DNA from: Eledone cirrhosa | Lineage: Eukaryota | DNA length: 64,000 nucleotides | Direction of reading: 5' to 3' | Assembly (NCBI GenBank): GCA_964016885.1 | Contig: OZ024742.1 | Location: forward strand, 50,158,001-50,222,000 | In this document: positions 410 through 64,000 of the stretch, in pieces | Layout of the letters: each line of letters opens with the position of its first letter | How positions within the stretch are numbered: position 1 is the first letter of the stretch | Translations under genes and position numbers: made by a program | Notes under the pieces: model-generated | Database searches by the model: none | What the model was told of the DNA's origin: nothing | Seen by the model: the letters and a program-made list of their open reading frames with translations, nothing else

Positions 410-647
410 GCCTCTCTCTATATGTGTATATATATATGTGTGTATATGTGTGTGTGTATGCATGTATGTGTAAACGGAGGTATATATACGGACATATGTA
501 TATGTGTGCGTGTGTGTGTATGTGTGCGTGTATGTGTGCGTGTATATTCGTGCGTGTATGTGTATATATGTATATTTAGTTATGTAACTTTATGTGTGTA
601 TATGTATGTATGTGTATGTATGTATATGTATGTATATATATATATAT

Positions 648-2015
648 TCAAACATACAGACCTAACTAGCAATGAAATGCACATTATATTATCGGCAAGG
701 AAAACATTGATAGAATTTAATAACCAACTATGGACTAGGGCAGATAGAGATAGTAATTTCGACATTACTATGGGATCATCTGACTCAGCTCAGGTAACGG
801 ACCTTGTGGGCCTATTTATAATTAATTCGCTGCATAGAAAAATACCTGGTGTAACCGGAGGATTATATCGTGATGACATGCTTTTAGTTATTGAAAATAA
901 TAACTCTGAACTAAATAGAAAAAGAAAACAAATTATACAATTTTTTAATTACCTTAATCTAAAAATAGAAATAGAGAATAACCATAGAATAGTCAATTTC
1001 CTAGATGTAACACTAAATCTCAACACATGTATCCATTTCACAAACTAAATGAAAACTTGAATTATGTCAGTTTTAACTCTAATCACCCCAGATCTGTTAA
1101 ACATACTATAGTGAACTCTGTTCAAGAACGTATCTCAAGAATTTCATCTCATAAAAATATTTTCGACGAAAAAGCGCAGTATTACAATGAAGCGTTAGCT
1201 AGAGCAGGATATAGTGATAAAATTATGTACATCGATAATAATAGGCAAACTAACCAATATAACAACAATTTTAATTACGGTAACAACTTTAACAACTATA
1301 ATAGAAAACACTACAATAATTCCAAAAGCCAGAAAAGAAATAGAACTAGAAATATAATATGGTTTGCCCCTCCTTTCTCACTAAATATTAAAACCCACAT
1401 TGCTAAGCTATTTTTTAATGCTCTTGACAAACGCTTCCCTAGAACACATAAATATCACTCAATTTTTAATAGACATACTATAAAATTAACTTACTCGTCC
1501 ACCAACAATTTAGCACAAAATATTAACAGAATAATAATAGGAATCTAAAACCTAGCCAAAATACCGATAATAGCCTAAACTATATTCAATTAAACAACTG
1601 TAACTGTAGAAATAAATCTAAATGTCCGTTAAATAACAATTGCTTAGTTAAAAATATAATATACAATTGTAATGTTAAAACTGACTTAAATTCTTTTAAC
1701 TATGTTGGTTCCACCTCGACAGAATTTAAACTTCGCTATAATAATCATAAGAATTCTTTCACAGATCCAGGCAAAAAATCTTCAACTTCACTATCAGGCT
1801 TACTCTGGCAACTTAAACATGATAACGTTGGATATTCGTTGTTTTGGAATATAGTCTCAAGAGGGATTCCTTTTAATTCCTCATCTGAGACATGTGAGGA
1901 GATATTCTTTATATTAAAATCTAAAAATTCCCTTAATCTAAGGAGCAATTTATTCAGTTGCTGCAGACATAGATTGAACTCAACGTTTAAATATAAATAT
2001 AAATTTAAAATGTAG
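648..2015 (+). pseudogene. Disrupted PLE RT/GIY-YIG endonuclease ORF (frameshifts near 1030 and 1540, small deletion near 1895)
   Basis: Track ORFs 248..1048 and 1027..1548 plus the continuing frame to 2015 are collinear with the endonuclease frame at 14171-14863. Confidence 0.88.
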
Positions 2016-3368
2016 TATATTTAGTTAAGATATTTATTTAATTAATTATGAAACCTGACGATAAATCTTTCGATTCCTTCAACTTTTTCTTTTTTAAACC
2101 TTCTTCATAAATATATACTAATGATGTAATTAAACTACCCTAAAATGTTGATGCTCCCAATCTATTGAATAAATTTTACGCTAGATAAACTTCTATACTA
2201 AATATAAAAGCATCTGTAGAACAACAGGGTCTCCTAAATCTTTTAAATGATTTCTGCTAAATAAGTCTTGTTGAATAATTTTGGTTTTTTGTTTGCTTTT
2301 GATTCTGATTGCTTCTAATGAACTTGGCAATATATTGTCAGATAAATTGGAAGGATTGATTTCTGTGGTTGATATGGGGGGCCAACTGTGTTTTTTTAAG
2401 GCCCCAGATACTCTAGGGAGTGATGAAAGTATTCTTAGCGTTTTGATATATTGATATCTGTTGTCTATTCTATACATGAACGATAATCATATATGTGAGG
2501 GCAGGAATATTAATATTAATATATATTTTTATGTATGTGTATGTATGTATATATATATATAGTAAAATCTTTTATAACGCAAAGGAAAATTTGTTCATGT
2601 GAAATAAGAAATTGCAGATCTGATCACGTATGTTCACGTGACAGCTCTGTAATTTCTTATTTCTATAGTGTCAACTAGAACTTGAGATGACCTTCTCTTT
2701 TTCTCTTTCTTTCTTTTTCCGGAAAGTACATATATACTTATGTATTTTTGAAGTTTTATCTCAGGTTTTGGTATATCGACCTAAGAATTTTAAACTAAAC
2801 ATATGGTCATTATTTGTTCACACATTATATATCTATGTCTCATTCATGAATATTGATATTTACAGTATAATACCCAATTCAAATATGAATTGATAATTCA
2901 AATTGATAGGACATAACGTAAAGTTGTAAATCTGTCATCCTTCTCTCTAGATATAGCTTTATTCTCCTCCCTCTATACATGATGTAATTTAAGTATCGCT
3001 GTTTTCTCTTTAGTTATTTTTTATTTCTCTCCGTCTCCTTAGCACTATAACTAAATAAATAAATAAATAAATAATTACAGTACTCCCTCCCTCCTAAATC
3101 TCTCAATTTGTATGATGAATTATTATTATTCATCTGTTGCCTCAGCTGACTCTCATTTTTCACCTCCTCACTATTTCTCTCTCCCATATCTCTCTCTATC
3201 TCTCTCTGTTTTTCTTTACATACATTTATTCCTTCTCTCCGTCTTTCTTTCTAACTGTGCTTAACACTAAATATTTACAAACATTTCACTACCAAACCAA
3301 CTTTTTAAATGGAAGTTGATCAATATTTTATGGTACGTCAAATTTATTTATAAAACTGCTTATATATT

Positions 3369-3436
3369 GTATTTTATCTGAAGAAGGCATGCCATATTTT
3401 TAATATGGTATTCCTGAAATATGTATAATGAAATAA
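3369..3436 (+). ncRNA. Type I hammerhead ribozyme (family A pLTR), minimal stem III
   Basis: tattttat-CTGAAGA(3378-3384)-aggcatgccatatt/ttt/aatatggtattcct-GAAA(3416-3419)-tatgta-TA-atgaaata. Stems I and II pair; stem III is a short near-palindrome. Confidence 0.85.
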
Positions 3437-3475
3437 ATATGGTTTTATAAATATAGTTTCCATTTGTTTAATATC

Positions 3476-3533
<58 letters not shown>

Positions 3534-3573
3534 ATATATATGTGCGTGTGTATGTGTGTGTATATGTATATGC

Positions 3574-4392: not shown

Positions 4393-5278
4393 CGTCAGTA
4401 ATAGGAGCGGTGAAAACCAATTACGCGCAAAGACAGAACCACGTTTATGGTATAAAATAGGTCGTAGACTAATGTTCTCTTAGGTGGTTCATAGAGACGT
4501 TCTCTGGCAACGAACGAAAAAAAAACGAAGATAATACGTCATATGTGGAGCGTGGAGAACAATTGCACGCAAAGACAATACATATGCCGTTGAACAGATC
4601 AATCACCGCGAAAGAATTCTTCCACAGTGCAAGAGGGGCCAAACTTTCAATTTGAGGTTTAATTCTATCAAGAATCGTTTTACTAAGTCTACCTAAATCG
4701 GACTTCGTAGGATTAATAAGCCGAATAGAGGGGTTGTTCGGAAAATTAGATTTGTGATCCTTCAGCGTAAAGTGGGGCGAAATAGGGTCCAGAGGTTCGA
4801 TCCGGTCCAGGATGTTGAGATCAGATGTGATTTTAAACCCAGCATCGTTGATTACATTGATGACGCACCGATTAGTTTTACGGTAATCCTTAGTTACAGC
4901 ATTATGTAGTAGTTGATGGTAAGTACTGCGCTCCACTTGATATAGGTTGCCAGTTTTGTCGGAATGGACGTGCACGGCATTAGAATCCTTAATAGAACGA
5001 ATTCTATTTTTCAGGTCCAGCTGGAAGGAATTGCTCACATTCCGAAATTTGATACTCCCTATGAGTTCCAAGACATCATTTTCGAAGGGTAGCAATGCTG
5101 GGTTACACGGGGTGTTATTATAGGTTTTAAACCCAAATTTATCCTGTTTGTTGTCTGCTTTCCGCGGATTATAGAAATAGAAGGCATGCCAACGCAACCT
5201 CTTAATGAACGCGTCTGTTTTCTGTATCAGGAGTTAGCCCTCTTTGGATTTTAGTCTTTAAATTTATTATTATTACTA
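4393..5278 (-). mobile_element. Rearranged Naiad-type family C copy: inverted tail (5236-5278) + N-terminal RT ORF fragment (5232-4579) + pLTR repeat segment (4578-4393)
   Basis: ORF 4469..5197 has RLRWHAFYF, FGFKT, FENDVLELI, SDKTGNLY, FTLKDHKSNF, RLINPTKSDLGRLSK and WKNSFAVIDLF, typical of the Naiad N-terminal RT region. 4393-4578 matches ~18470-18652. 5236-5278 is the reverse complement of the ends at 18962 and 49007. Confidence 0.85.
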
Positions 5279-7940: not shown

Positions 7941-8352
7941 ATATTGTTATACTCTGGGAGGGTAATGTTGCCAATAAGAAACACACCCACCAGATGATTT
8001 CACTTCAATTTATTATAATAAATTTATAAATTTAGGAATTTAAAAATTTCCGGTTGGTTGGTTGGTTCCACAACCAGATGATTGTTTATATATTGTTAAT
8101 GTTCTTTCGTCACTCATTGAGAAGTGTGACGAAAGAACTTTGACAATATATAAAAAATCATCTGGTTGTGGAACCAACCAACCAACCGGAAATTTATAAA
8201 TTCCTAAATTTATAAATTTATTATAATAAATTGAAGTGAAAACATCTGGTGGGTGTGTTTCTTATTGGCAACATGACCCTCCCAAAGTATAACAATATCC
8301 GTTTCAACACACGTTTTCAGATAAAGTATCTTGCTAAACAAATTCAGAAACG

Positions 8353-8356
<4 letters not shown>
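7941..8356. mobile_element. Neptune-type PLE pLTR fold-back (arms ~175 bp, 57-nt tail on the right)
   Basis: 7941-8115 is the reverse complement of ~8125-8298. The right arm plus tail matches 48680-48998. The centre is HHR stem II (gtcac...gtgac). Confidence 0.85.
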
Positions 8357-8434
<78 letters not shown>

Positions 8435-11638: not shown

Positions 11639-11718
<80 letters not shown>

Positions 11719-11755
11719 ATTAAATAAATGGAAAACTATATTTATAAAACCATAT

Positions 11756-11823
11756 TTATTTCATTATATATATTTCGGGGATATCATATTAACAATATGC
11801 TATGCCTTCATCAGACAAAATAC
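11756..11823 (-). ncRNA. Hammerhead ribozyme (family A, inverted arm)
   Basis: Reverse complement of 16381-16448. Confidence 0.83.
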
Positions 11824-12185
11824 AATATAAACAGTTTTATAGATAAATATATTCGACATACCGTAATAAACATCAACTTCATTTGAAGAGGTTCACTCTA
11901 GCAGTGAAAATACAGAGAGAAAGAAAGAGAGAGAGAAAAGAGGGAAATAAGAAAGAAAGAAAGACGAAACGAAGAAAAGGAAGAAAAAGAAGAAAAAGAA
12001 GAAATGCATGGGACAAAATAGAGAGATGGAAAAATAGATAAAGCGAAGAGCTTCATGTAAAGAGACCGAAAGAGATATATATATATAGAGAGAGAGAGGA
12101 AATAGAGATAGATACATATATAAATATAGATATAGAAAAATTAGGTAGTGGGAGGTCATTTTGAGTAAGTGTATCAATGATGCAT

Positions 12186-12220
<35 letters not shown>

Positions 12221-13322
12221 GCTCAAGTATTAATGTAAGGGAGATATAGAGAGATATAGAGAGATATAGAGAGAGAAAAATTTAAAAATAGCCAGACATA
12301 TTCGAGGCGTAGAAAACCCTATGTTTTAATGTATTAGTATTTATAAAACTTACACTATATTGTAAATATCAGTATTCCTGAATGAAACAAGTATTCACAA
12401 TGCGTGAAAATTCATTATCTTATGTTTAGTTTTTAAAAAAATTCATATGTCTATGTGAATCCAACTGATTCACTCCGCAAATTCAAAGTTACCGGAAAAC
12501 ATTCTCAATGTGGTATAAACATTTGAGCGTATTATTATTCTTGCGATTACTCTACAAGATTATCTATCAAGCAGAAATAGAGAGCAGATTTCAATATACT
12601 AATCGAAAATATATATTATATTATAAGCAGAGATAACAATAATAATGATAATAAGTAAAAATATATAAAAATATAAAAATATAGAATAGAAAACTAAAAA
12701 AGAATATTACGAAAGAATATTACATAATAAAAATATTGCATATTAAAAATACTATGTTTTAAAATTATTACGTATTAAAACTTTACATATAAAAATATTA
12801 AAAATAAAAATAAAATAAAATAAAAAATAAAAAATAAAAATATAAAAATATTATAGAATACTACAATACTAAAAGAATAAAAATAAAAATAAAAATAAAA
12901 ATAAAAATAAAAATAAAAATAAAAATAAAAATAAAAATAAAAAATAAACCACAAAGAACAACCCTTCAAGGTTAATTGACAATATATTGCCAAGTTCACT
13001 ACAAGACAAAGCCAAAAATTATCTATCAAATCACATCTAGCAAGGAATATCGCAAAAAAAAAAAAGGTTATGATGTCCAATAATGTCTACATATGTTCCT
13101 ATATTTAATATATAAGTTTATCAAGTGTAAGGTTAATTCATAAAATTTGGAGCATCGGCTTTTAGGGTAGCTTAATTTTTCATGAGGAATGTTTAGATAA
13201 AAATAAAAATAAAAATAAAAATAAATACAATAAAATAAACAGTAAAAAGAGGGAATCAAAGATTTAGGAATCAAAAGATTTATCGGCTAGTTCTCATATA
13301 AATATAAATCAAACTAAATATA

Positions 13323-14023
13323 CTACATTTTAAATTTAAATTTATATTTAAACGTTGAGTTTAATCTATGTTTGCAACAACTGAATAAATTTGTCCGTAG
13401 GTTAAGGGAATTTTTAGATTTTAGTATAAAGAATATCTCCTCTGCGCAGAGGTCACATGTCTCAGAGGATGAATTAAAAGGAATCCCTCTTGAGACTATA
13501 TTCCAAGCCGTCGAATATCTAACGTTATCTAGCTTAAGTTGCCAGAGTACACCTGATAGTGCCGTTGAAGATTTTTTATTTGGATCTGTGAAAGAATTCT
13601 TGTGGTTATTATAGCGAAGTTTAAATTCCGTCGATGTGGAACCGACGTAGTTAAAAGAATTAGAGTCAGTATTAACATTACAATTGTATACTATATTTTT
13701 AACTAAGCAGTTGTTATTTAACGGACATTTAGATCTATCTCTACAGTTGCATTTGTTAACTTGTATATTATTTATGCTATTATCAGTAGTTTTTAAGTTC
13801 CTATTATTTATTCTATTAATATTTTGTGTTAAATTTTTGGTGGATGAATAGGTTAATTTAATTGTATGCCTATTGAAGATTGAGTGGTACCTATGTGTTC
13901 TAGGGAAGCGATTATCAAGAGCTTTGAAAAATAATTTAGCGATGTGGGTTTTAATGTTTAGTGAGAAAGGGGGGGCAAACCAAATTATGTTCCTAGTTCT
14001 ATTTCTTTTTTGTCCTTTGGAAT
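13323..14023 (-). pseudogene. PLE GIY-YIG endonuclease C-terminal ORF fragment (inverted arm)
   Basis: RNIIWFAPPFS..CNCRDRSKCPLNNNC..NIVY..YVGST..FKLRYNNHK..CDLCAEE..CCKH; open frame but 5'-truncated. Confidence 0.9.
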
Positions 14024-14180
14024 AATTCCATAGGACAAAAATAATTCCAAAGGACAAAAAAGGACAAAAAAGGACAAAAAGACAAAAAGACAAAAATAAT
14101 TCCAAAGGACAAAAAAGGACAAAAAAGGACAAAAAGACAAAAAGACAAAAAAGGACAAAAGGACAAAAAAGGACAAAAAA
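14021..14180 (+). repeat. Templated micro-repeat spacer: 14 x (G)GAC-A4-6 with three ATAATTCCA re-entries and an exact 55-bp duplication
   Basis: Every unit derives from the element's own aataattccaaaggacaaaaaa word; 14041-14095 is identical to 14096-14150. Confidence 0.92.
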
Positions 14181-14863
14181 GAAATAGAACTAGGAACATA
14201 ATTTGGTTTGCCCCCCCTTTCTCACTAAACATTAAAACCCACATCGCTAAATTATTTTTCAAAGCTCTTGATAATCGCTTCCCTAGAACACATAGGTACC
14301 ACTCAATCTTCAATAGGCATACAATTAAATTAACCTATTCATCCACCAAAAATTTAGCACAAAATATTAATAGAATAAATAATAGGAACTTAAAAACTAC
14401 TGATAATAGCATAAATAATATACAAGTTAACAAATGCAACTGTAGAGATAGATCTAAATGTCCGTTAAATAACAACTGCTTAGTTAAAAATATAGTATAC
14501 AATTGTAATGTTAATACTGACTCTAATTCTTTTAACTACGTCGGTTCCACATCGACGGAATTTAAACTTCGCTATAATAACCACAAGAATTCTTTCACAG
14601 ATCCAAATAAAAAATCTTCAACGGCACTATCAGGTGTACTCTGGCAACTTAAGCTAGATAACGTTAGATATTCGACGGCTTGGAATATAGTCTCAAGAGG
14701 GATTCCTTTTAATTCATCCTCTGAGACATGTGACCTCTGCGCAGAGGAGATATTCTTTATACTAAAATCTAAAAATTCCCTTAACCTACGGACAAATTTA
14801 TTCAGTTGTTGCAAACATAGATTAAACTCAACGTTTAAATATAAATTTAAATTTAAAATGTAG
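14171..14863 (+). pseudogene. PLE GIY-YIG endonuclease C-terminal ORF fragment (direct arm)
   Basis: Mirror of 13323-14023, with LAQN instead of LTQN; no start codon. Confidence 0.9.
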
Positions 14864-15983
14864 TATATTTAGTTTGATTTATATTTATATGAGAACTAGC
14901 CGATAAATCTTTTGATTCCTAAATCTTTGATTCCCTCTTTTTACTGTTTATTTTATTGTATTTATTTTTATTTTTATTTTTATTTTTATCTAAACATTCC
15001 TCATGAAAAATTAAGCTACCCTAAAAGCCGATGCTCCAAATTTTATGAATTAACCTTACACTTGATAAACTTATATATTAAATATAGGAACATATGTAGA
15101 CATTATTGGACATCATAACCTTTTTTTTTTTTGCGATATTCCTTGCTAGATGTGATTTGATAGATAATTTTTGGCTTTGTCTTGTAGTGAACTTGGCAAT
15201 ATATTGTCAATTAACCTTGAAGGGTTGTTCTTTGTGGTTTATTTTTTATTTTTATTTTTATTTTTATTTTTATTTTTATTTTTATTTTTATTTTTATTTT
15301 TATTTTTATTTTTATTTTTATTTTTATTCTTTTAGTATTGTAGTATTCTATAATATTTTTATATTTTTATTTTTTATTTTTTATTTTATTTTATTTTTAT
15401 TTTTAATATTTTTATATGTAAAGTTTTAATACGTAATAATTTTAAAACATAGTATTTTTAATATGCAATATTTTTATTATGTAATATTCTTTCGTAATAT
15501 TCTTTTTTAGTTTTCTATTCTATATTTTTATATTTTTATATATTTTTACTTATTATCATTATTATTGTTATCTCTGCTTATAATATAATATATATTTTCG
15601 ATTAGTATATTGAAATCTGCTCTCTATTTCTGCTTGATAGATAATCTTGTAGAGTAATCGCAAGAATAATAATACGCTCAAATGTTTATACCACATTGAG
15701 AATGTTTTCCGGTAACTTTGAATTTGCGGAGTGAATCAGTTGGATTCACATAGACATATGAATTTTTTTAAAAACTAAACATAAGATAATGAATTTTCAC
15801 GCATTGTGAATACTTGTTTCATTCAGGAATACTGATATTTACAATATAGTGTAAGTTTTATAAATACTAATACATTAAAACATAGGGTTTTCTACGCCTC
15901 GAATATGTCTGGCTATTTTTAAATTTTTCTCTCTCTATATCTCTCTATATCTCTCTATATCTCCCTTACATTAATACTTGAGC

Positions 15984-16018
<35 letters not shown>

Positions 16019-16380
16019 ATGCATCATTGATACACTTACTCAAAATGACCTCCCACTACCTAATTTTTCTATATCTATATTTATATATGTATCTATCTCT
16101 ATTTCCTCTCTCTCTCTATATATATATATCTCTTTCGGTCTCTTTACATGAAGCTCTTCGCTTTATCTATTTTTCCATCTCTCTATTTTGTCCCATGCAT
16201 TTCTTCTTTTTCTTCTTTTTCTTCCTTTTCTTCGTTTCGTCTTTCTTTCTTTCTTATTTCCCTCTTTTCTCTCTCTCTTTCTTTCTCTCTGTATTTTCAC
16301 TGCTAGAGTGAACCTCTTCAAATGAAGTTGATGTTTATTACGGTATGTCGAATATATTTATCTATAAAACTGTTTATATT

Positions 16381-16448
16381 GTATTTTGTCTGATGAAGGC
16401 ATAGCATATTGTTAATATGATATCCCCGAAATATATATAATGAAATAA
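16381..16448 (+). ncRNA. Type I hammerhead ribozyme (family A pLTR)
   Basis: tattttgt-CTGATGA(16390-16396)-aggcatagcatatt/gtt/aatatgatatcccc-GAAA-tatata-TA-atgaaata; palindromic minimal stem III. Confidence 0.85.
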
Positions 16449-16624
16449 ATATGGTTTTATAAATATAGTTTTCCATTTATTTAATATTGTAAATATACTC
16501 CAAGTATTTGTCGAGTGCTTTTATATCAGTTATAAATATTTACTAGTTGTAACCCAACAATTTTAAATATAACTTTACATATATATATATATATATATAT
16601 ATCACGATAAACTAACGGAGCACT

Positions 16625-18233
16625 AGACATATATGATGATGCAACGCTGGGCGGGCCCGTACAGACTATCTGCCATTACCTACATTTGGTGGTTCCTGCC
16701 CTGGCAGGAATCGGCCTTCAAGACAACTCGGCTAAGTCACAGGTGGTGAACGTCAGCCACGATGCTGAGAGCTTTACAGCCTCCGTCTCGGACTCGCGGT
16801 CCATTCTCCACCAGGTACAGGTGACCGCTAAAGAGGATGTGCTCATACTCGTGTCAGCAATCCACTCGCCGGCCATCCGCTCCACCATCAGGTCCAGGCT
16901 TCAACAACTCCAGACAATCACGAGCCGACTGGGCTTGATCGACGGCCACCCAGCCATCTTTCTGTCGAGGAACTGCTTCGCCATACCGAAGCTCCTCTAT
17001 ACCCTTCGCAGCGCTCCGTTCTACACTCACACATCTTTCCTCGCTGACCTCGATACTTGTATCCAAGAAGCAGCCGAGGAGATATGTAACGTCAAGTTTG
17101 ACGTCATTGGATGGCAACAGGCCGCCTTACCTATCAGGTATGGCGGCCTTGGCCACCGGTCCCCGATCTCACTGGCTTTGCTGGCGTATCTTTCGTCGGT
17201 AACCTAGTGCCGCGTCCTCGTCAGCAGGGTTCTCAAAAACACAATAGAACCCTTTGTGTTCCGAGAACGTGAGGCCGCCTGGGAGACGTGGGACCGGCTG
17301 GGACGCAGCCCAGTAGTCGTCCCTCCTACTTCTGCCCCTGTTGACGTCATGTCCCACCAAAGCACTTGGGATGCCATCCAGTGCAGCCTGGCCTCAGACA
17401 GGCTCACGCGCCAGCTCGAACACCACCGCCTTGCCTGTATTCGTGCGGCCTCCAAACCCTACAGTGGTGCCTGGCTCCATGCCCTGCCCTCCTTCTACAC
17501 TGGCACGCAGCTAGACAACAATAGCCTGCGCATTGGCGTTTCCTTGAGGCTCGGCCTCCGGGTCTGTGAGCCACACCAATGTCGCTGCGGATCCACCGGG
17601 GACCCTTTCGGCCTCTACCCGCTTTCCTGTCACCACAGTGCCGACCGCCTGCCACGCCATGCTGCCCTTAACGAGGTCATAAAGCATGGCTTGGACGTTG
17701 TAGGTTTTCCTTACCAGCTCGAGCCGGTGGGGGTGGACCGAGGGGACGGCAAAATGCCAGATGGCATGACCATCTTCCCGTTCCGTGGTGGTAAACTTCT
17801 CGTCTGGGATGCCACTTGCACCGACACTTTCTGCAGCCGCAACCTGGTGTAGTCTGCGATTAACTCGGGTTCTGCTGCACGTCGTCGGGCTAAGGAGGCT
17901 AAACTCCTCAAATACCGGTATCTCTCCGACAAGTTTGCGGTTGTACCCCTGGCAGTGGAGACCTCTGGTGTCCTTGGCCTCCCTACTCACCACCATAGGC
18001 GCTGAGCTGGCCAGCCGTAGGTGTGAGCCCCGCGCGTTGGAGTGGATTTTCCAGCGCGTCTCCCTTGCTGTCCTCCAGGGAAAGGCCTTCTCCATTCTGA
18101 CTGCCGAGGCTGTGGCGGAGCCCCATCGCGTATCATTCCATATTTAGTTGTGGTGGGCGTGCGTGTGTGTTTGTATATATCGCTTTTGTTTTCATTCATC
18201 ATCATGTCATTCTTCATTGCTTTTCTCTACTAA
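16625..18233 (+). mobile_element. CRE-like non-LTR retrotransposon, 5'-truncated (RT YxDD, Zn knuckle, restriction-like endonuclease), several stops
   Basis: YDDATLGG, QQAALPIRYGGLG, SGAWLHALP, CRCG..C..RHAALN, GKMPDG..LVWDATC, VPLAVETSG, FQRVSLAVLQGKA; GC-rich; lies in (TA)n. Confidence 0.82.
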
Positions 18234-18275
<42 letters not shown>

Positions 18276-18282
18276 TAAAATA

Positions 18283-18358
18283 ACAGATTAAAGTTTAAGC
18301 AAAGAATCGCTGCTTTCACCCTTAACGGGATCTTCTGAAACTAACAAAGTCAATCTGT
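18283..18358 (-). ncRNA. Type I hammerhead-like RNA with CAGAAGA (A4) core
   Basis: Minus strand: ACAGATTGA-ctttgtt-AGTTT-CAGAAGA-tCCC-gttaa-GGGt-GAAA-GCAG-cgattct-TTGC-TT-AAACT-TTAATCTGT; stems Ia, Ib, II and III all pair. Confidence 0.72.
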
Positions 18359-19064
18359 AAACGCAGAACTGGATATTTCAAAAAGCGTTGCAACCGGAGG
18401 AAGACAGGAAGACGATACTTTGGTTCGTGGTAACGTTCGCTGGCAAAGAACGGGAAAAAACGAATAATACGTCATTAATAGGAGCGGTGAAAAACAATTA
18501 CGCGCAAAGACAAAACCACGTTTATGGTATAAAAGAGGTCGTAGACTAATGTTCTCTTAGGTGGTGCATAGAGACGTTCTCTGGCAATGAACGAAAACAC
18601 GAAGATAATAAGTCATATGTGGAGTGTGGAGAACAATAGCACGCAAAGACAAAACCACGTAAATGGTATAGCAGTAATCGTAGACTAAAATTCTAACTAG
18701 GAGACCAAATGAATCTCCGCTACAGAGTTAAGAACAAAGTAAATAAATACAATACAGAAGTAATAGGAACAAATAAATACATACACGCAAACAGATACGT
18801 ACATACACAAGCATACGCAAAACCTTACCATGGGTATACAAAACCACGCACATATAAATATGTGTGTGTGTGTATGTTTGTGTACAAATAAATAAATAAT
18901 TATATAAACGTATATAAGTAAATAAATACGTATATAACAAGCGCACACGCATACCTACATATAGTAATAATAATAAACTTGAAGACTAAAATCCAATGAG
19001 GAGTCGATAAGGATGAATATATATCAACTATATGAGAAACGTAGAGAAAATATTTATTAAAATA

Positions 19065-19140
19065 ACAGATTAAAGTGTAAGCAAAGAATCGCTGCTTTCA
19101 CCCTTAAAGAGATCTTCTGAAACTAAAAAAATCAATCTGT
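19065..19140 (-). ncRNA. Second, more mutated copy of the A4-core hammerhead
   Basis: Same tcttctg core and tttc on the plus strand; mismatches in stems I and II. Confidence 0.6.
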
Positions 19141-20859
19141 GAACGCAGAAGTAATTATTTTGAAAAACGTTGCAACCGTAGGAAAACAGGAAGATGATAC
19201 ATTGGTTCGTGGAGACGTTCCCTGGCAATGAACGGAAAAAAGCGAAGATAATACGCTATTATGGGGAGCGAAGACAAAACCACGTTTAAGGTATAAATGA
19301 AGTCGTAGACTAAAATTCTATTTGGGAAACCGAATGATTCTCGGCTTGAGAGTTAAGAATAATCTAACCAAATTACAGAGGTTATTGAAATCAACGCTTG
19401 CGTGTGTGTTTATATGTTTGGTGTGTGTGTTCGCGTTTGGGTGTATGTGCTTTGGTTTTTGTATTCTATCTCTGTTTATTAGTGTGTGTTTATATGTGTT
19501 TGTTATTGTACTTGTGTATATATTTATTTATTTAATTCTTTATTTATTTATATTTCTCTTAAATCTGTATTGTTTGTTTCGGTATGGTTGTTGTTATTCC
19601 ATTCGTTTTTTCTTTTTAACTTTGGTTTTCTTAGCTCTATTTCGCTAGCTTCTCTGACTTGTCTACTTGTTGGGTCATTTCTATGTTTAAATATTATTTT
19701 AATTTCTATGTTGTCTATATTATCCGCATTTCTTTGTCTGGCGTGTACGTATACTATACGATCAACCTGTGCTGATTAAAATGAACCATGTGTGTGTGTG
19801 TGCATCTTATTTGTTGAAGTTAATGTGGAAATAAAGCCATAACCTCTGGGCTCCATGAGAGATCTTTACTGTTTTAATATGCAAATTCCCACTGTATCAA
19901 GTTATTATAACTCGTCAACAAATCTTTCTGTAATGCGGTTTTTGATTTTACGATTTACCATTCTTTCGGTTCGGTAATGACTATAGTAGCGGAGTACTAA
20001 GTAAGTTGTAGCAAAAATAATAGCAATATTTTGTTCTTTAACATAGAATTATTTACGATATAGAAGTAAAGTATATGACTGGTACACTGTAACGACGTCG
20101 AAAGTTTAAAAAGCTAAGATTATTTCGTTTTTAATGAATATTGCAAGGTATTCTATCCGATGTTCTAACTCCTTGTCATTAAAAATTAACGAATCTACTT
20201 ATGAGGTGTGTTCGATCTGATAAAACGCAAAACTACATTGAATTTCGAACCTGCATTGTGAAATTCGTGTGTATAATAATCGTTACGCAAATTTGACTGA
20301 CAAGTCGAAAAATAATAATTTCGTAGACACATAAACATAATGCTAAACATTCTCTTTTCTTGGTTATGTATCAAACCAAATAAATTCCTGAAAACTCATT
20401 CATCTTTTCTTTCTACGTAATTCTGTATATTATATGCAATTTATCATGGTAAATTCACAGCTGGACATTCGCAATAGGAATCTTCGTATCCGTGGCATAT
20501 ATTGCAAATGTCTTATTTATCGAAGAATTTAACGAGCTAAACCGAATCCTTTTATTAGGGTTTCTTGGAGATGTTACTTGTTTGCTAACTGCGCCATGGA
20601 TATATTCTGTGAAATTCATTTACTGCTATTATCTATAACAATATATTGTCAAAATACATATAATTATTATTTCTATAGTTTAACTTCCCTTCTTGCTTAG
20701 TAGTTTCATAAACAAAAACGTATTCTCAAATTGCAATGCTCCACTGTATGAAATAGAAAGAAATAGATCCAATTTGGAAGATCTACTACATGTTTACAAG
20801 ACGGGATGTGCTTAAATATTTACAATAGTGTTAAACTAATATAAACTTATGTGTAAAGT

Positions 20860-47479: not shown

Positions 47480-47687
47480 GACTTTCGTCAAATCGGACCG
47501 AGGAAACAATGTTTCCATCGGTCTTTCCAGTTGCTAATACTATCTATCGGTCGCAACTCCAGGTAGAAGGAGCAACGTGAAATAAAATGTCTTGCTCAAG
47601 GACATAACGCATCGACCGGTCCAGGACTCGAACGCACAACCTCAAGATTGTGAATCCAATTCTCTAACCACTCAGCCACACGCCTTC
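47480..47687 (-). mobile_element. tRNA-derived SINE
   Basis: Minus strand gaaggcgtgtggctgagtggttagagaatt..gttcgagtcc..gttatgtccttgagcaagaca. Confidence 0.78.
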
Positions 47688-47706
47688 ACACACACGCACA
47701 CACACG

Positions 47707-47803
<97 letters not shown>

Positions 47804-48485
47804 CTTTCTATTCTATTCCAATATTGGAATAGAATAGAAAGAACTAGGAACAAGGCCAATAGAATAGACTCATGGTATGATAGCAATAAATACCAGAGTG
47901 TAATGTTCATAGATACAACCCCTAGAGGCGAACTAGCCTACACATTTAGAAGGGCCCTAAATAAACATAAACTCAATATTAAGATAGTAGAAAGACCAGG
48001 TACCTCCGTAAAAACACTTATTAGCAAGACATACCCGTTCCAAAGACCCTCATGTATAGATAAGAAATGTATAACCTGTAAAATAAGCCCCCATATTAAC
48101 TGTAAAACTAGAAATGTAGTGTATAGCATAAGATGTACTGAAGGACAATGTAGAAACAAAAATATAGTGTACATAGGTGAGACAGCTCGTAGTATAGGGG
48201 AACGAATAAATGAACACCGGCGAGACCTTCAAGATAATAAAGAATCATCTGTGCTCTACCAACATGCTAAGATAGAACACAGGGGTAGATTAGAGAACAT
48301 AGAAATAAAAATAGAATCCACACACAGAAAAGATGCAATGTTTAGGCAAATTACAGAGGCAGTAAGCATAAAAGAATTACAACCAAAATTAAATAGAAAA
48401 TATGAGTGGAACAGCAACATCACAACTTACAATTAAGGACAAAATGAAAACACACACACACATAGAACAAACAACCAACCAACAA

Positions 48486-48516
<31 letters not shown>

Positions 48517-48656
48517 ACAAATAGATAAATGAACACAAACACACACAGACTCCCGGATGTGGCGCATGCGCAAACTGAGCACACAACACACACACAGAAA
48601 CAAAATGGCGTAGGATAGAAGAAAGGAAAGGCACAGAAACAAAGAAAGGAATCTCC

Positions 48657-48701
48657 AGTCACTGAAGAGGTCACAGAGTGTGTGACGAAAGGACTATGAC
48701 T
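48657..48701 (+). ncRNA. Minimal type I hammerhead ribozyme (Neptune pLTR)
   Basis: AGTCA-CTGAAGA-g-GTCACA-gagtg-TGTGAC-GAAA-ggac-TA-TGACT. Confidence 0.85.
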
Positions 48702-48796
48702 ATATATAAACAACTATCTGGTTGTGGAACCAACCAACAAACCAGAAATTTATAAGTTTGTAGATTTGTAAATTTATAAATTTATAAATATATATA

Positions 48797-48858
48797 AAGG
48801 GCGGTGCCCCAGCATGGCCTCAGCCGGATGGCTGAAACAGGTAAAAGAGTAAAAGAGT
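48797..48858 (+). mobile_element. SINE 3'-end fragment inserted in the Neptune pLTR
   Basis: ggcggtgccccagcatggcc..ggctgaaacaggtaaaagagtaaaagag is absent from the pLTR copy at 8200-8230 and resembles the 3' end of common Octopus SINEs. Confidence 0.65.
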
Positions 48859-49006
48859 ATATAATAAATTGAAGTGAAAGCAACTGGTGCCTGTGTTTCT
48901 TATTGGCAACATGACCCTCCCAAAGTATAACAATATCGGTCGGTTTCAACACACGATTTCAGATAAAGAATCTTGCTAAACAAATTCAGAAACGAAATAT
49001 ATATAT

Positions 49007-49192
49007 AGTAATAATAATAAACGTGAAGACTAAAATCCAAAGAGGGCTCGATAAGGATAAATATATGTAAAATATATAAGAACCCTAGAGCAAATATTTA
49101 TTAAAATAACAGATTAAAGTTGAAGCAAAGAATCGCTGCTTTCACCCTTAACGGGATCTTCTGTACTTAAACCTTAATCTGTTATTTTAATA
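49007..49192. mobile_element. Miniature family C PLE fold-back (tail + HHR 3' part on minus; 27-nt short arm on plus)
   Basis: 49007-49163 matches 18962-19119; 49166-49192 is the reverse complement of 49099-49125. Confidence 0.85.
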
Positions 49193-49621
49193 TATATATA
49201 TACATACATATACACACACACATGTAAACATACGTAGAAAAACATATGTGCACACATGTTTTCGAACATACATAGATTCGCATTTTGGACTACGTTCGGT
49301 CACATGTCACACATACATGGACAACAATAATGAAGTATTATACCCGTGTTTCTCAACACAAATCTTTCGCCGCATACCAAACACCCTTCACACACAAATT
49401 CTATCTATTCTCTACATTTAATTTATTCCTCAATATCATTTCTGCATTTCTTGTCATTTTCATACCATCATACACACACACGCACACGCACGCTCAAACA
49501 CGCATGTATACACACATACGTACGCGCAAAGGAAAATACATCTGCACATACACGAACTCACATACTTTCATTTTCTACGATCTTGCTATTACATTTCGTT
49601 CAAATCTTGGGTCGTGATAAT

Positions 49622-55574: not shown

Positions 55575-57480
55575 CATTATTATTCTTTCAGTCTCAGTCA
55601 TTGATGTTATTTAACTGTAAAGTTTGTTGAAATTAATATCAAGCCGCTACCTGCAGCCTCAAATATTCAGGACGTATCGGAGGGTTCTTGCTGTTCCCAT
55701 CAAGAATGTCTTTTGAAGTGTTCCAAAACATGGGGCTGGTCTAATCTTCTTTAACCATTACGGAAAAATCTTTGATATAGTACCTAATGCTCCTATGACA
55801 ATCGAGACAAACTTGATCTCATGTCAGTCCCAAATCCTTTTTAACTCACACTTTTGATCCTGGCATCGGTTAATTTTCTCCATCTCCTGCACAGGCACAA
55901 TCTTTTGTCCTTGGCAAATTCGACCAGGTCAGGCCTATTGTGTTCTAATTTCTTCTCCGTCTGTATCCTGAAATCACATAGCACCTTCACTTAATCGTTT
56001 TCTGTCACCGACTCGAGCTTATGCGCATACCACTTCTCAGAATGTGGTAAATTGTTTAGTTTGCATAGATGCCAGTGAATCACCCTTTCTATCATATCAT
56101 GTCTCCAGCCTGTATAGTGGGTCTGGGCTAGGTTTTTACACTCGGATAGGATGTTAGCCACAGTCTCCCCTCTCTCTCTCCACAGATCCTACACAGTAAG
56201 CTAGCCTCCTCCTTGTCAATATGGTGTTTCACCCACTTCGTTCTCGGTGCTTGCTGTAGTGCAGCCAGTAGCATTACTTCTGTAACCTTTTTAAGGTCAC
56301 CTCTTTTTAGCCAGCTTCATGTCTTTGGATCTCTGAATTCCGTTTTCTTAAAGAAGGTGCTATGAAGGGATGTTTCATGAAGCTTGCTCTTCCTCCTTGT
56401 TGTTATTTCCTCCTTTGACATCCCATTATTTATTGCCTTCTCCTTCAGTACAATTTTGAGCATTGTCTCTCTACTATCAGCCACATATTTTCAGACTGCT
56501 TTTCTCCACTGAACACAGTCCTCTATGCTGATAAGACCTCTTCCACCTTCAGATCTCTTTAAGTATAATCGATCAACATCACTCCCCTTGTGGAACATGC
56601 TGTAGGTAGTCATTAGCGTCCTAGTCTTTCTATCCATTTCTTTTTGCTCACTAACATTCCATTTGAGACCTAATAATAGACACAGGTCGGGAATTTACTG
56701 CACTTATGACATTCCTACTATTTAGATGAGTTTGGTATGTTCCTTACTTTCCTTATTCAGATCTTATCAATTCATTCATTTTTTTGTTTTGATGCCATCT
56801 GCCTCCAGAACACTTAAATATGTATATCCCTCTTCAGTGTCGATTTCCTTTATCATCTCTCATGTTGGTACCTGGATTCTGTTGTTTCCGTTCAATGTAA
56901 CCCTCTTCACTCGGACTTCACGTTTATTAACATCAAATTCCATACATATATCATTGCTGGACATACGTACAGTGTTAACAAATACATCCAACTCGTTCTC
57001 GATTTTCCCACAGCTTTAGATCGTCCATGAAGGGGAGGTAGTTGATGGTAAGCTCTCCTCTTCTCAGCTTGTATCCTGCCCTCACCTTTCGCAATATGAG
57101 GGACAAGGTTATGAGGGTAATGACAAACAACAAAGGGGATAAACTATCTCCTTCGAAGATACGTCTCTTGATCTTTACTCCTCCCAAGGATTCTCCACCT
57201 GGTGTTAACTCTGATTCCCAGGACTTCATACTTTTACTTAATTGCTGTCTAATGTTGTCTGCCACCTTGAAGATCTCTAGGCCTTCGGTTATGCAAGAAT
57301 GAGGTATCATGTCAAATGCCTTCTTGTAATCTATCCATCCTATGGACAGACAAGTATGATTTGTCTTGCATTTCCTTATTACCACAGTATTAATAAGTAA
57401 CTGGTCTTTTGTACCACGGGACATCTTTCGGCATCCTCTCTGTTCGCCCGGCATTAAGTTGTTTATGTGGAGGTGATAGT
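55575..57480 (-). mobile_element. R4/Dong-like non-LTR retrotransposon, 5'-truncated and decayed
   Basis: EQRGCRKMSRGTKDQLLIN, WIDYKKAFDMIPH, IFEGDSLSPLLF, FMDDLKL; downstream CRICGE..ETVANILSEC..LAQ..Y..RHD. Confidence 0.85.
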
Positions 57481-57486
57481 AGATAG

Positions 57487-60400
57487 TACATCCACCTTAG
57501 AGATGCCGTCAATTCTGATGTTGACCCAAGAAATATTGGCCAGCCAGTCATAATACCATCAGGCTTTACGGGAGTACCACGCAAGATGCAATGAACGTAC
57601 GCAAGATGCAATGGCCTATGTTAGAAAATTTGGTCGGCCAGATCTCTTCATTACATGCAATTCAAACTGGTCAGAAATATCAAAAACCAAAGGATCGACA
57701 TGACCTGGGTTTTCCATGAAAAGCAAAAATAGAACTCATCTGGCTCCTAAAAGAAGGAAGAATCGTTGGATGACCACTATTGAGTGGCAGAAGAGAGGTC
57801 TTCCTCACTCCCACACACTAATCTTCTGCAAGGAGCATATAAGACAAGATCATGTTGTAAACATCATTTCAGCTGAGTTGCCTGATAAAGGTGGTGATCC
57901 AGAGCTCTTTGAAACCATCAAGTCCAAACTCATTCATGGTTCATGTGGAATCATCAATCCAGCCTCTCCCTGCATGGAAGATCAAAAATGCAGCAAACAT
58001 TAATCTAGAGCTTTCATTCGGGAAACTCGGACTGACAATAATGGATACCCCCTTTATTGTAGGCGTTGACCAGAACATGGAGGCAATACTGAAAGCCTAA
58101 CATTTCGAAGAGAGGAGCTGACCATAAACAATCAGTGGGTGGTCCCAAACAACAAATTATTGTGTAAACTTTTAAAAGGTCATATCAATGTTGATTATTG
58201 CAGCTCCATCAAGGCAATCCTATATGTCAAAAAATATATCAATAAGGGCAATAACATGGCTACCTTTATTACTGACAAAGAACTCAGTGATGGTGGGCTG
58301 GATGAGGTCAAACGGTATCAAATAGGTCGATACATTTCCAGCAATGAAGCTATTTGGCGAATCTTTGGATTTGATACCCATGAACGCCATCCAAAAGTGG
58401 TCGATCTCGCAGTCCATCTGGGAAATGGACAGATAGTGTACTTCACTATGATCACTGTTCATCAGTGCTTTCTTTAAACTCTGCCAGAATTATGAATTTG
58501 CTCGATCCCTCCTATATACTGAAGTCCCAACATACTACATGTGGACCAATTGCAAGACCTGAAATCGAAGAAAGCAGGGTCATTTAGTGGAAGGTCATGA
58601 ACTCAAGTCAAGTGATTCTATTGGGCGTGTTTTCAATGTCCATCCCAACAACAGAGAATGTTTTTATTTACGGCTACTTCTGCATAATATTCGAGGACCA
58701 ACATCATTAGAGGATCTTAGGTGCTTCAGAGGATGGGAGCGTGCAACATACGAAGAAGCATGTAACCAGCATGGACTGCTGCATGAAAATGGACACTGCA
58801 GGAAGTGCCTAGAAAAAGCAGCACTCACTCAAGAAGCCAGTCAAATAAGACAACTATTTGCTATTATGCTCACAGCATGTAGATTGATGAAGCTCATCTA
58901 CTCTGGCAGGATAACAAAAACAATATGTCGGACGACTATCTACACCTATCCCGAAGACATGATGGCAATATGTATATGGAATGTACCCCCCAGGATTTAC
59001 AATCAAGCACTCTTCTGTGACCTGTCCTATCGAGTTCAGGCAATGAATAGCACATTAGCTAACTGCGGGATGCTAGAGCCAGATGAAGAAATGGATGTAG
59101 CACAAGACATTTTTCAGGAGACAAACTACGATATTCAAGCATTGCGTAAGTTTGTGGATGAAAATGAACCTCGATTGATGGATGATCAGAAATACACCTA
59201 CCACATCATCGAAAACATTCAAAATGACAGGGGAGGACTTTTCCTCATCGATGCTCCTGCTGGCGCAGGCAAGACATTCCTAATAAACGACCTGCTTGCA
59301 AAAGTTCGCCAAAAGCAACATATTGCCCTTGCTGTGGCTTCAAGTGGCATTGCAGCAACACTTCTGGATGGAGGAAGAACTGCACACTTCATGTTTAAGC
59401 TGCCCATAGATCTCACACGGCATGAACAATCTTTTTGCAACATCAAGAAGAACTCATCCAAGGGCAAGCTTCTGCAAACATGCAAGATGATAATTTGGGA
59501 TGAAGCTACTATGAGCCATAAAGGAGCAATTGAAGCTTTGGACCGGACGATAAGGGATCTGAGAGAAAATAGTTGCATAATGGGAGGAGTTACAATGGTT
59601 CTTTCTGGTGATTTCAGACAACTCTGCATGTAATTCTTCGAGGGACTCGAGCTGATCAGGTCAATGGCCCCACTTTCAGCTGCGCCTTAGAACCAATATG
59701 CGAGTGCCCTTAACTGGTGACGAAGGTGTCAGTGAGTTTGCCATCCAACTACTTAATTTGGGAAATGGACTTCTTGAAAGGGACTCCAATGACCATATTC
59801 AGTTGTCATTTGGCAATAGCATTGACACAGAGCAAGAACTGATTGCCAGAGTGTTTCCAAACATTCAGACCAAGCAATGTGATCCGAAATGGCACTGTGA
59901 ACGAGCAATCTAGAGCACCTAAAAATGTTGCTGTGAATGAAATCAACAGAAGGCTGCTTGAAATGTTACCGGGAGAGAAAATATGCTACAAATCAGTTGA
60001 CACAATCCCTTCTCAAGACAAGGTTGTAAACTATCCAACTGAATTTTTGAACAGTCTTGAACAAGCGGGAATTGCTCCACACAACCTAATACTGAAGCTT
60101 GGAGCATCGGTTATGCTACTGGATCCTCCAAAACTTTGTAATGACACAAGTTGCAATCATGTCAGTAAAATTTGCTGGTGACAATTGTTTCATTCCCAGA
60201 ATACCTCTGAAGCCAACTGATTTGCCATTTGAATTTCAAACACTTCAATTTCCGATCAGGGTCAGTTTTGCCATGACCATCAAGGGAAATCATTGAAAGT
60301 CATTGGGTTGAATCTGGTAGATCCTGTCTTTTCACATGGTCAACTCTATGTTGGTACAACAAGGGTTGGGAACCCTGATTGTCTCTTCATTGTGGTACTA

Positions 60401-63654: not shown

Positions 63655-64000
63655 AATGAAAATAAAATTAATGTAAGCAAGATGCCAACAATAATTCAGG
63701 CATATAGGTGACTATACCATCAAGATGAACATCTTTTAATGTAAGATGAGGGAAAAAGTAATACGATCTTAATTCAAAACAATTCAACAGGAAAAACGTT
63801 GTCATCAAACTGTGTAAGTTGGTGAAAAAGCAATACAATCTTAATTCAAAATAAAATCAAGAAGTAATACTTAACAGTGAATTTGGGGAAAACTACAAAT
63901 GCACTATATAGTCATAAAAGACCATTTCACGAACCTCTTCAGTTGGATTAGTTACGCTTGTAATCGATCTTAAGTAGTGCTCAACACATTAACTAAATCA

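Follow-up and report, generated by a model that had tools for sequence, protein, structure and literature searches.

Hammerhead ribozymes are found in sense near the 3' end of Penelope-like elements of the Hydra clade, where they are of type I (Craig et al. 2021, PMC8557442 File S2). The clade itself is defined by a reverse transcriptase with DKT instead of DKG and an RWK motif; its C-terminus holds a GIY-YIG domain without CCHH, preceded by a linker of the form CxCX5C, and (TA)n is its preferred target. What the hammerheads do for Penelope-like elements is stated in the same work as open. All 25 of the published Hydra-clade hammerheads have U at core position 4, a set that was nonetheless retrieved with a canonical descriptor; a U-U pair opens stem II in 14 of the 25 families (counted by eye), and several have A at position 7.

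Three other described systems bear on the locus presented here. Minimal and variant hammerheads lie in the terminal repeats (pLTRs) of Penelope-like elements (Cervera and De la Pena 2014, PMC4209133); they include family-fixed core variants of the U3-A8 kind, are typically of low activity in vitro, need dimers and keep U4. Their short palindromic stem III is thought to require a dimer and to make cutting slow (PMC4209133; PMC6765202). Natural core variants collected by Perreault et al. (2011, PMC3088659) include a viroid hammerhead in which a U4C change persists, weak in vitro and still infectious, and they identify U10.1-U11.1 as a natural and the best tolerated mismatch. Finally, in the Poseidon element PAc of Anolis (PMC11167929), from another clade and with a canonical, cleaving core, the hammerhead stands upstream of the tail region that contains the start of reverse transcription; RNA that has not been cut is the principal substrate there, and ribozyme-dead mutants insert normally in vitro.

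The hammerhead family described here shares with the Hydra clade the type I fold, the sense orientation near the 3' end, U10.1-U11.1 on a short stem II, A7, (TA)n targets, and DKT and RWK-like motifs in the reverse transcriptase. It departs from it by A4 and G15.2-C16.2, with a cleavage triplet CUU, where the published members have U4 and C15.2-G16.2, and by a stem III of 17 nt together with a bulged 14-bp stem I, whereas stem III spans at most 10 nt in the Hydra-clade loci that we surveyed. Unlike the variants of PMC4209133, it combines a full stem III with an uncompensated core change. The text of PMC3088659 names U4C, not U4A; here position 4 is a purine, fixed in a genomic retrotransposon family. 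In contrast to PAc, the core is a variant one and the element is Hydra-type.

Our literature search found no natural U4A hammerhead; A4 may already be shown by Lunse et al. (2017), on variants of Penelope hammerheads, or by Ruffner et al. (1990). None is named in the text of Perreault 2011 or of Cervera 2014, whose figures and supplements may show A4, and the available text of PMC11014351 and PMC12192606 says nothing about position 4.

Fold and copies of the predicted hammerhead

The window, i.e. the whole stretch of 64,000 nucleotides that was analysed, contains on its minus strand a type I hammerhead that is a variant and not a canonical member; the cut site given for it is a predicted one.

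18283-18358, minus strand: intact first copy (copy 1) of the type I hammerhead; the cut is predicted to follow U17 at 18297
18331-18337, minus strand: core C3-A9, reading CAGAAGA, with A4 at 18336
18298-18314, minus strand: stem III, 17 nt from A15.1 to U16.1, with G15.2-C16.2

The fold had been proposed by a sequence-only reading, and it is present as proposed when verified pair by pair: 22 of 22 pairs are standard, three helices surround the core, and the ends of stem I are open. Stem I is made of a distal helix of 9 bp (one of them G-U) and a proximal one of 5 bp, separated by a 7-nt bulge (18349-18343). At the entry of stem II, U10.1 (18330) faces U11.1 (18318); three C-G pairs and a GUUAA loop follow. 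G12-A14 are present, stem III has 5 bp closed by a 7-nt loop, and U17 of the CUU triplet is at 18297. The required letters C3, G5, A6, G8 and A9, G12, A13 and A14, A15.1-U16.1 and H17 are all in place. The single departure is at core position 4, where all three copies have A in place of the canonical U.

With position 4 left free in the descriptor, a match of copy 1's score arises 0.05 times per shuffled window; once a distal helix of at least 9 bp is added, none of 100 shuffles matches. A covariance model trained solely on 18 hammerheads from other Hydra-type elements returns 18289-18345 as the top match of the window (20.9 bits, rough E 0.0015) and gives E 1.2 and 1.5 for the damaged copies 2 and 3, respectively. 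Strong covariation is seen among 18 aligned clade hammerheads; as they were chosen for pairing, it only confirms the descriptor. An Rfam scan with E up to 1 gives no hammerhead match, only matches of microsatellites to miRNA models, in keeping with the expectation of the sequence-only reading that standard descriptors would miss this core.

The hammerhead fold lies above the predicted minimum (-13.0 versus -15.1 kcal/mol; z -0.70), and in the minimum-energy fold A4 sits paired within an alternative helix. Since the proximal stem I has a still lower predicted probability in 17 of 45 canonical hammerheads of the clade, this result is uninformative either way. In the folding computation the strict fold has a probability of 0.001 with A4 and 0.002 with U4. 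The idea that A4 acts through a stabilised misfold was dropped, folding energies failing to separate A4 from U4.

The CAGAAGA core with its U-U pair had been reported in three copies, and it is found at 18337-18331, 19119-19113 and 49163-49157. The recurrence of the A4 core thus stands; the three are not independent witnesses, being members of one transposon family, two of them damaged and only copy 1 intact. They lie in a window of apparently animal DNA, rich in microsatellites and crowded with transposon fragments.

18236-18275, strand not given: (TA)n tract, (TA)20, at the 3' end of Unit B
18276-18770, minus strand: Unit B, a 5'-truncated 3' region (pLTR) with an internal duplication of ~140 nt
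18960-19385, minus strand: Unit A, the upstream partial-tandem repeat, whose tail extends 119 nt beyond the cut site
19065-19140, minus strand: hammerhead copy 2, with A4 and the U-U pair retained
49000-49197, minus strand: copy 3, an element 3' end flanked by TA tracts

Copies 1 and 2 mark the ends of two unequal partial-tandem units, 782 nt apart. Unit B terminates 21 nt beyond the cut site and copy 3, like Unit A, runs 119 nt beyond it, so that the distance from cut site to 3' end is 21-119 nt. All three genomic copies therefore span the predicted cut site, from which it follows that their templates were uncut (or rejoined) RNA. Copy 2, with its core at 19119-19113, carries alleles of another subfamily plus three changes that lack 2% support in the contigs of sequencing run X1, described below; it is damaged at 1.2, where the pair is mismatched, in stem II, where a wobble has arisen, and in loop II, which is altered. 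In copy 3 the truncation falls immediately 5' to the core (49163-49157, with C3 at 49163 and the U-U pair kept), an inverted copy of ~35 nt of the element's 3' end replaces the 5' strand of stem I, and position 1.1 is C.

Repeats of non-LTR retrozymes are 150-400 nt in size. We rejected this class for the locus: its criterion is a head-to-tail tandem of hammerhead repeats (10.64898/2026.07.22.740005), and the window holds no head-to-tail tandem of complete hammerheads, only an unequal two-unit partial tandem and dispersed truncated copies.

The host element and position 4 in the Hydra clade

A Penelope-like element carries the hammerhead in its 3' repeat (pLTR), in sense orientation. This orientation is given by a fusion at 4581; the hammerhead, with its variant core, is also the top match of the clade model. 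Judging by the reading frame that is fused to the family's 3' region at 4393-5277, the element likely belongs to the Hydra clade.

4393-4581, minus strand: piece of the family's 3' region, 92.6% to 18470-18655, stopping before the hammerhead
4583-5233, minus strand: N-terminal part of a Hydra-type reverse transcriptase with RWH and DKT motifs

The 3'-region piece is joined in sense to the reverse transcriptase frame, which is itself preceded by an inverted tail of the hammerhead family (~5239-5277). This link between protein and hammerhead is a single rearranged copy, ending short of the hammerhead. RWH and DKT fall within 4601-5230 and were matched by eye to the motifs of Hydra-1_Obim; membership in Naiad was rejected, the motif being DKT and not DKA. 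The frame has 121 relatives at E 1e-10 or better, and a Pfam scan did not recognise this N-terminus. In a tree of 63 rows, from which rows with stops or fewer than 170 aligned residues were excluded, P0001 and P0002 are the only proteins that share the long branch of the family protein; the tree has no named Hydra reference and no outgroup. The clade's C-terminal motif occurs in the window in a second Hydra-type family only (1527-2015, 14045-14863), the endonuclease half of the hammerhead's own family lying outside the window. The mode of insertion agrees with the clade: a (TA)n site, partial tandems, and inverted, 5'-truncated copies. A family-specific DNA pattern had no match in viral or metagenome contigs, and a protein alignment search returned no viral loci.

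We then compared the hammerhead with those of 91 Hydra-type loci, which are distant relatives of its family and have no DNA likeness to the family's 3' region. Sixty-four hold a hammerhead, 45 of these non-redundant, and 82 of 86 matches are in sense relative to the reading frame. The other 27 loci have none even when one core mismatch is allowed; many of them may miss their 3' end. With position 4 left free in the descriptor, the 45 non-redundant hammerheads show 44 U, 1 C and no A, while shuffled loci yield 0.6 A4 matches per set, at lower score. The second Hydra-type family of the window also retains U4 (hammerheads at 3378, 11814 and 16390). In agreement with the suggested natural core variant, A4 is uncommon in relatives, with 0 of 45 hammerheads. 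The U-U pair, in contrast, loses the novelty first given to it: besides its frequency in the published families and its standing as a tolerated mismatch, U occupies both 10.1 and 11.1 in 20 of the 45. Altogether, A4 is the genuine oddity of this hammerhead; there is nothing remarkable about the U-U pair, the location or the type of element.

Two features of stem III set the family apart as well. Its 15.2-16.2 pair is G-C, against C-G in 43 of 45 and U-A in 2 of 45 hammerheads of the clade, a two-sided change relative to the clade only. Its predicted hairpin has -1.9 kcal/mol as a monomer and, being near-palindromic, -12.9 as a self-dimer, whereas stem III of the clade spans 4-10 nt at 0 to +6 kcal/mol, with a median of +2.1 (47 of 47 hammerheads). 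By these energies, the family's stem III is predicted to be stable as a monomer and the short stem III of the clade to need a dimer.

Among the surveyed loci, a natural C4 core (CCGAAGA) stands beside a Hydra-type element at L006:2928, and a U3-A8 core variant beside another at L058:1938. Thirteen Hydra-type loci (L079-L091) lie within contigs of prokaryotic genome assemblies and are most likely animal host DNA binned into them.

Variation, possible constraint and possible cleavage of A4 RNA

Four of 24 listed sequencing runs were mapped to 18276-18480 at 80% likeness; copies less alike than this are uncounted. In X1, 10,224 contigs cover the stretch, 3,242 of them at least 99% alike and 576 less than 90%. 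A accounts for more than 98% of the depth at 18336 and no other letter reaches 2%; none of the 13 core sites, position 4 and the other core letters alike, varies at 2% depth or more, and neither does stem I. These figures come from contigs, which lose rare variants, and X1 may be the window's own source; its depth sums are not usable as copy number. The sequence-only reading held that A4 is not copy-specific decay, and at the 2% threshold no U is indeed seen at 18336 in the 10,224 contigs: A4 is family-wide. At a likeness of 80% or more, the young CTGAAGA copies that would have spoken against it were not found; below that likeness, there may be an older U4 subfamily.

X5 and X6 contribute one low-depth contig each; the two cover the whole stretch, with 1 and 2 differences that leave the hammerhead untouched, and keep A4. 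They probably show the commonest form of the family, and by their match to it copy 1 would be a near-typical young copy. X7 contributes ten contigs, of which a loose end belongs to a more diverged copy with another loop II and the same CAGAAGA. The matches in X5, X6 and X7 resemble trace DNA more than independent carriers and were not counted as other species. Over runs X5-X20, with many other organism labels, 7-32% of sampled words are present; horizontal sharing of the young A4 family among other organisms is possible. No RNA run is listed among the carriers, which is uninformative about expression.

Whether the A4 fold is constrained was judged from differences between copies. Copies 1 and 2 differ at 0 of 13 core positions, 2 of 44 stem positions and 3 of 19 loop positions; core and stems together have 2 of 57, against 30 of 183 upstream (p about 0.007, the strongest of the tests and one that uses a single pair of copies). 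Where a difference is also present in X1 at 2% or more, a master copy is its likely origin; such differences number 0 of 57 in core and stems against 10 of 119 (p 0.018, or 0.026 without one window-private allele). For all X1 variants the depletion in core and stems is not significant (p 0.11-0.20 in four settings), and with X1 alleles tallied singly at 8% it gives p 0.028. All these tests are post hoc, overlapping and not independent. Stem-breaking alleles occur in X1 at 2-4.5% (18310, 18319, 18320), and no compensatory pair is seen within the family, either in X1 variants or between copies 1 and 2. Conservation between the copies does not stop at the stems but continues for a few bases on either side, a margin that also fits recognition of the 3'-end sequence or homogenisation. 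The A4 fold looks constrained by these sequence comparisons, which amount to moderate evidence.

Several junctions coincide with parts of the fold. Loose ends at 18282-18283 in X1 (27 and 56 contigs), and also in X7, mark a switch of sequence directly 3' of the last stem I pair; as the reference stops 7 nt further on, clipping may exaggerate this subfamily switch. Truncation or inversion at the 5' side has its junction at the 5' edge of the core in copy 3 (49160-49197) and in an X7 contig (18319). The inverted arm of copy 3 begins ~3 nt before the cut site, and contigs of X1 have further loose ends, at 18336 and at 18342. Reverse transcription may stall at the fold, or template switching may be seeded there.

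We consider it somewhat probable that the A4 hammerhead of this high-copy family is strongly slowed, or close to silent, as a ribozyme while its shape remains under selection, with A4 acting as a brake. The hydrogen bond that the imino group of U4 makes in the uridine turn would be lost with A4, and the substitution would cripple this turn. In a double-mutant scan all single and double mutants of CUGA are low-active save a C3-G8 swap (PMC9901934, stated for these mutants as a group). Reverse transcription would begin in the tail past the cut site; fast cutting would remove the start of the template, so that every family would need a brake. In most Hydra-type families the short stem III, unable to fold unless a second copy is present, could be this brake. 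In the present family, where stem III appears stable as a monomer and stem I is long and bulged, A4 may serve as the replacement. The slow cleavage left over would release or end tandem transcripts; alternatively, what remains might be a purely structural signal for the element's protein. An attenuation that spares uncleaved template fits, by analogy, the published work on PAc and on slow Penelope hammerheads. It is possible either that stem III lengthened first or that A4 came first.

A more specific version, in which the brake was swapped, a monomer stem III and a stem I with tertiary contacts having been gained and A4 fixed so that cleavage proceeds at a tuned and used rate, seems to us rather unlikely. 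If true, it would give the first natural U4A hammerhead under selection and widen the core consensus; standard descriptors would then miss whole families, perhaps in elements supposed to be without hammerheads. More generally, the success of a family in which a near-invariant position is fixed for another letter amounts to a natural experiment on the need to cut RNA. Should A4 RNA stay uncut, the family would have amplified without cleavage while keeping the fold, which would point to a structural role; should it cut, the core consensus would be broader than the descriptors in use.

The hammerhead could instead be a dead relic: a master copy lost U4, cleavage was dispensable, and the family amplified anyway. 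The apparent conservation would then stem from the family's youth, from the element's protein recognising the 3' end or from 3' ends being homogenised, and not from selection on the fold. Insertion in vitro indeed needs no cleavage (PMC11167929), copy numbers are very high in Naiad elements, which have no canonical hammerheads (PMC8557442), and the population-wide depletion short of significance, the two damaged copies out of three and the lack of covariation seen within the family point the same way. It is harder to reconcile with the distribution of the changes: at the subfamily level they hit bulge and flanks and none of the 57 core and stem sites, loops vary at the flank rate (3/19) and stems do not (2/44), and A4 is common to lineages ~16% apart upstream, time enough for stems to drift. 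We regard this reading as possible, though not probable. At the other extreme, the core variant could be efficient, the bulged stem I, the monomer stem III and a contact between U1.7 and an A of loop II offsetting A4 and restoring a physiological rate. The core is unchanged at 12 of its 13 positions and none of the 22 pairs is broken, U stands seventh beyond the cut (18290, where it forms a G-U wobble) and A is the last letter of loop II, a pair proposed to speed natural hammerheads (PMC11875169; PMC2632901), and other natural core variants do cleave (PMC3088659). Yet CUGA mutants were not rescued in the complete double-mutant scan of one type III hammerhead (PMC9901934), both U1.7 and a loop-end A are frequent by chance in AT-rich DNA, and fast cutting of monomers would part the body from the tail in which copies 2 and 3 end. 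An efficient A4 core is, in our view, quite unlikely.

Two further readings are far weaker. A4 might be repaired or bypassed in RNA, by A-to-I editing in the CAG context or by a bound protein, making cleavage dependent on the cell. ADAR prefers a 3' G. A4 is paired in the minimum-energy fold, and inverted copies can form long double strands. Purine changes at position 4 are low-active, however (PMC9901934), so that inosine is unlikely to restore much, and no observation here indicates editing; such a switch is very improbable. As for a chance resemblance in an AT-rich repeat, it can draw on the fold not being the minimum-energy one, on the missing Rfam match and on the lower-scoring A4 matches in shuffled loci. 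It is barely conceivable and largely refuted by the absence of the full architecture from 100 shuffles, by an independent clade model that ranks copy 1 first, and by a strand and position that agree with the clade. The slowed or nearly silent A4 ribozyme with a selected shape is the reading that we prefer.

Other elements in the window

The second Hydra-type family forms a 2.3-kb inverted repeat (11707-16497, 99.1%) out of two 5'-truncated copies. Their hammerheads, at 11814 (minus strand) and 16390 (plus strand), have a canonical core, a long stem II and an AT-palindrome as stem III; a third copy occupies 638-3541, with its hammerhead at 3378. A different Penelope-like clade is represented at 47654-48720 by a C-terminal GIY-YIG frame with a minimal canonical hammerhead behind it, at 48662 on the plus strand; short inverted pieces of this element's 3' end are found at 7941-8365 and 48679-48936. 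Strings of the form CUGANGA...GAAA that fail the full descriptor occur at 63942, 5669 and 17224, all on the minus strand, and the one at 63942 could represent another family's minimal hammerhead. The window also contains fragments of non-LTR reverse transcriptases (16611-17852 and 56975-57496) and a Helitron-like PIF1 helicase frame (Pfam PF05970) at 58070-59633.
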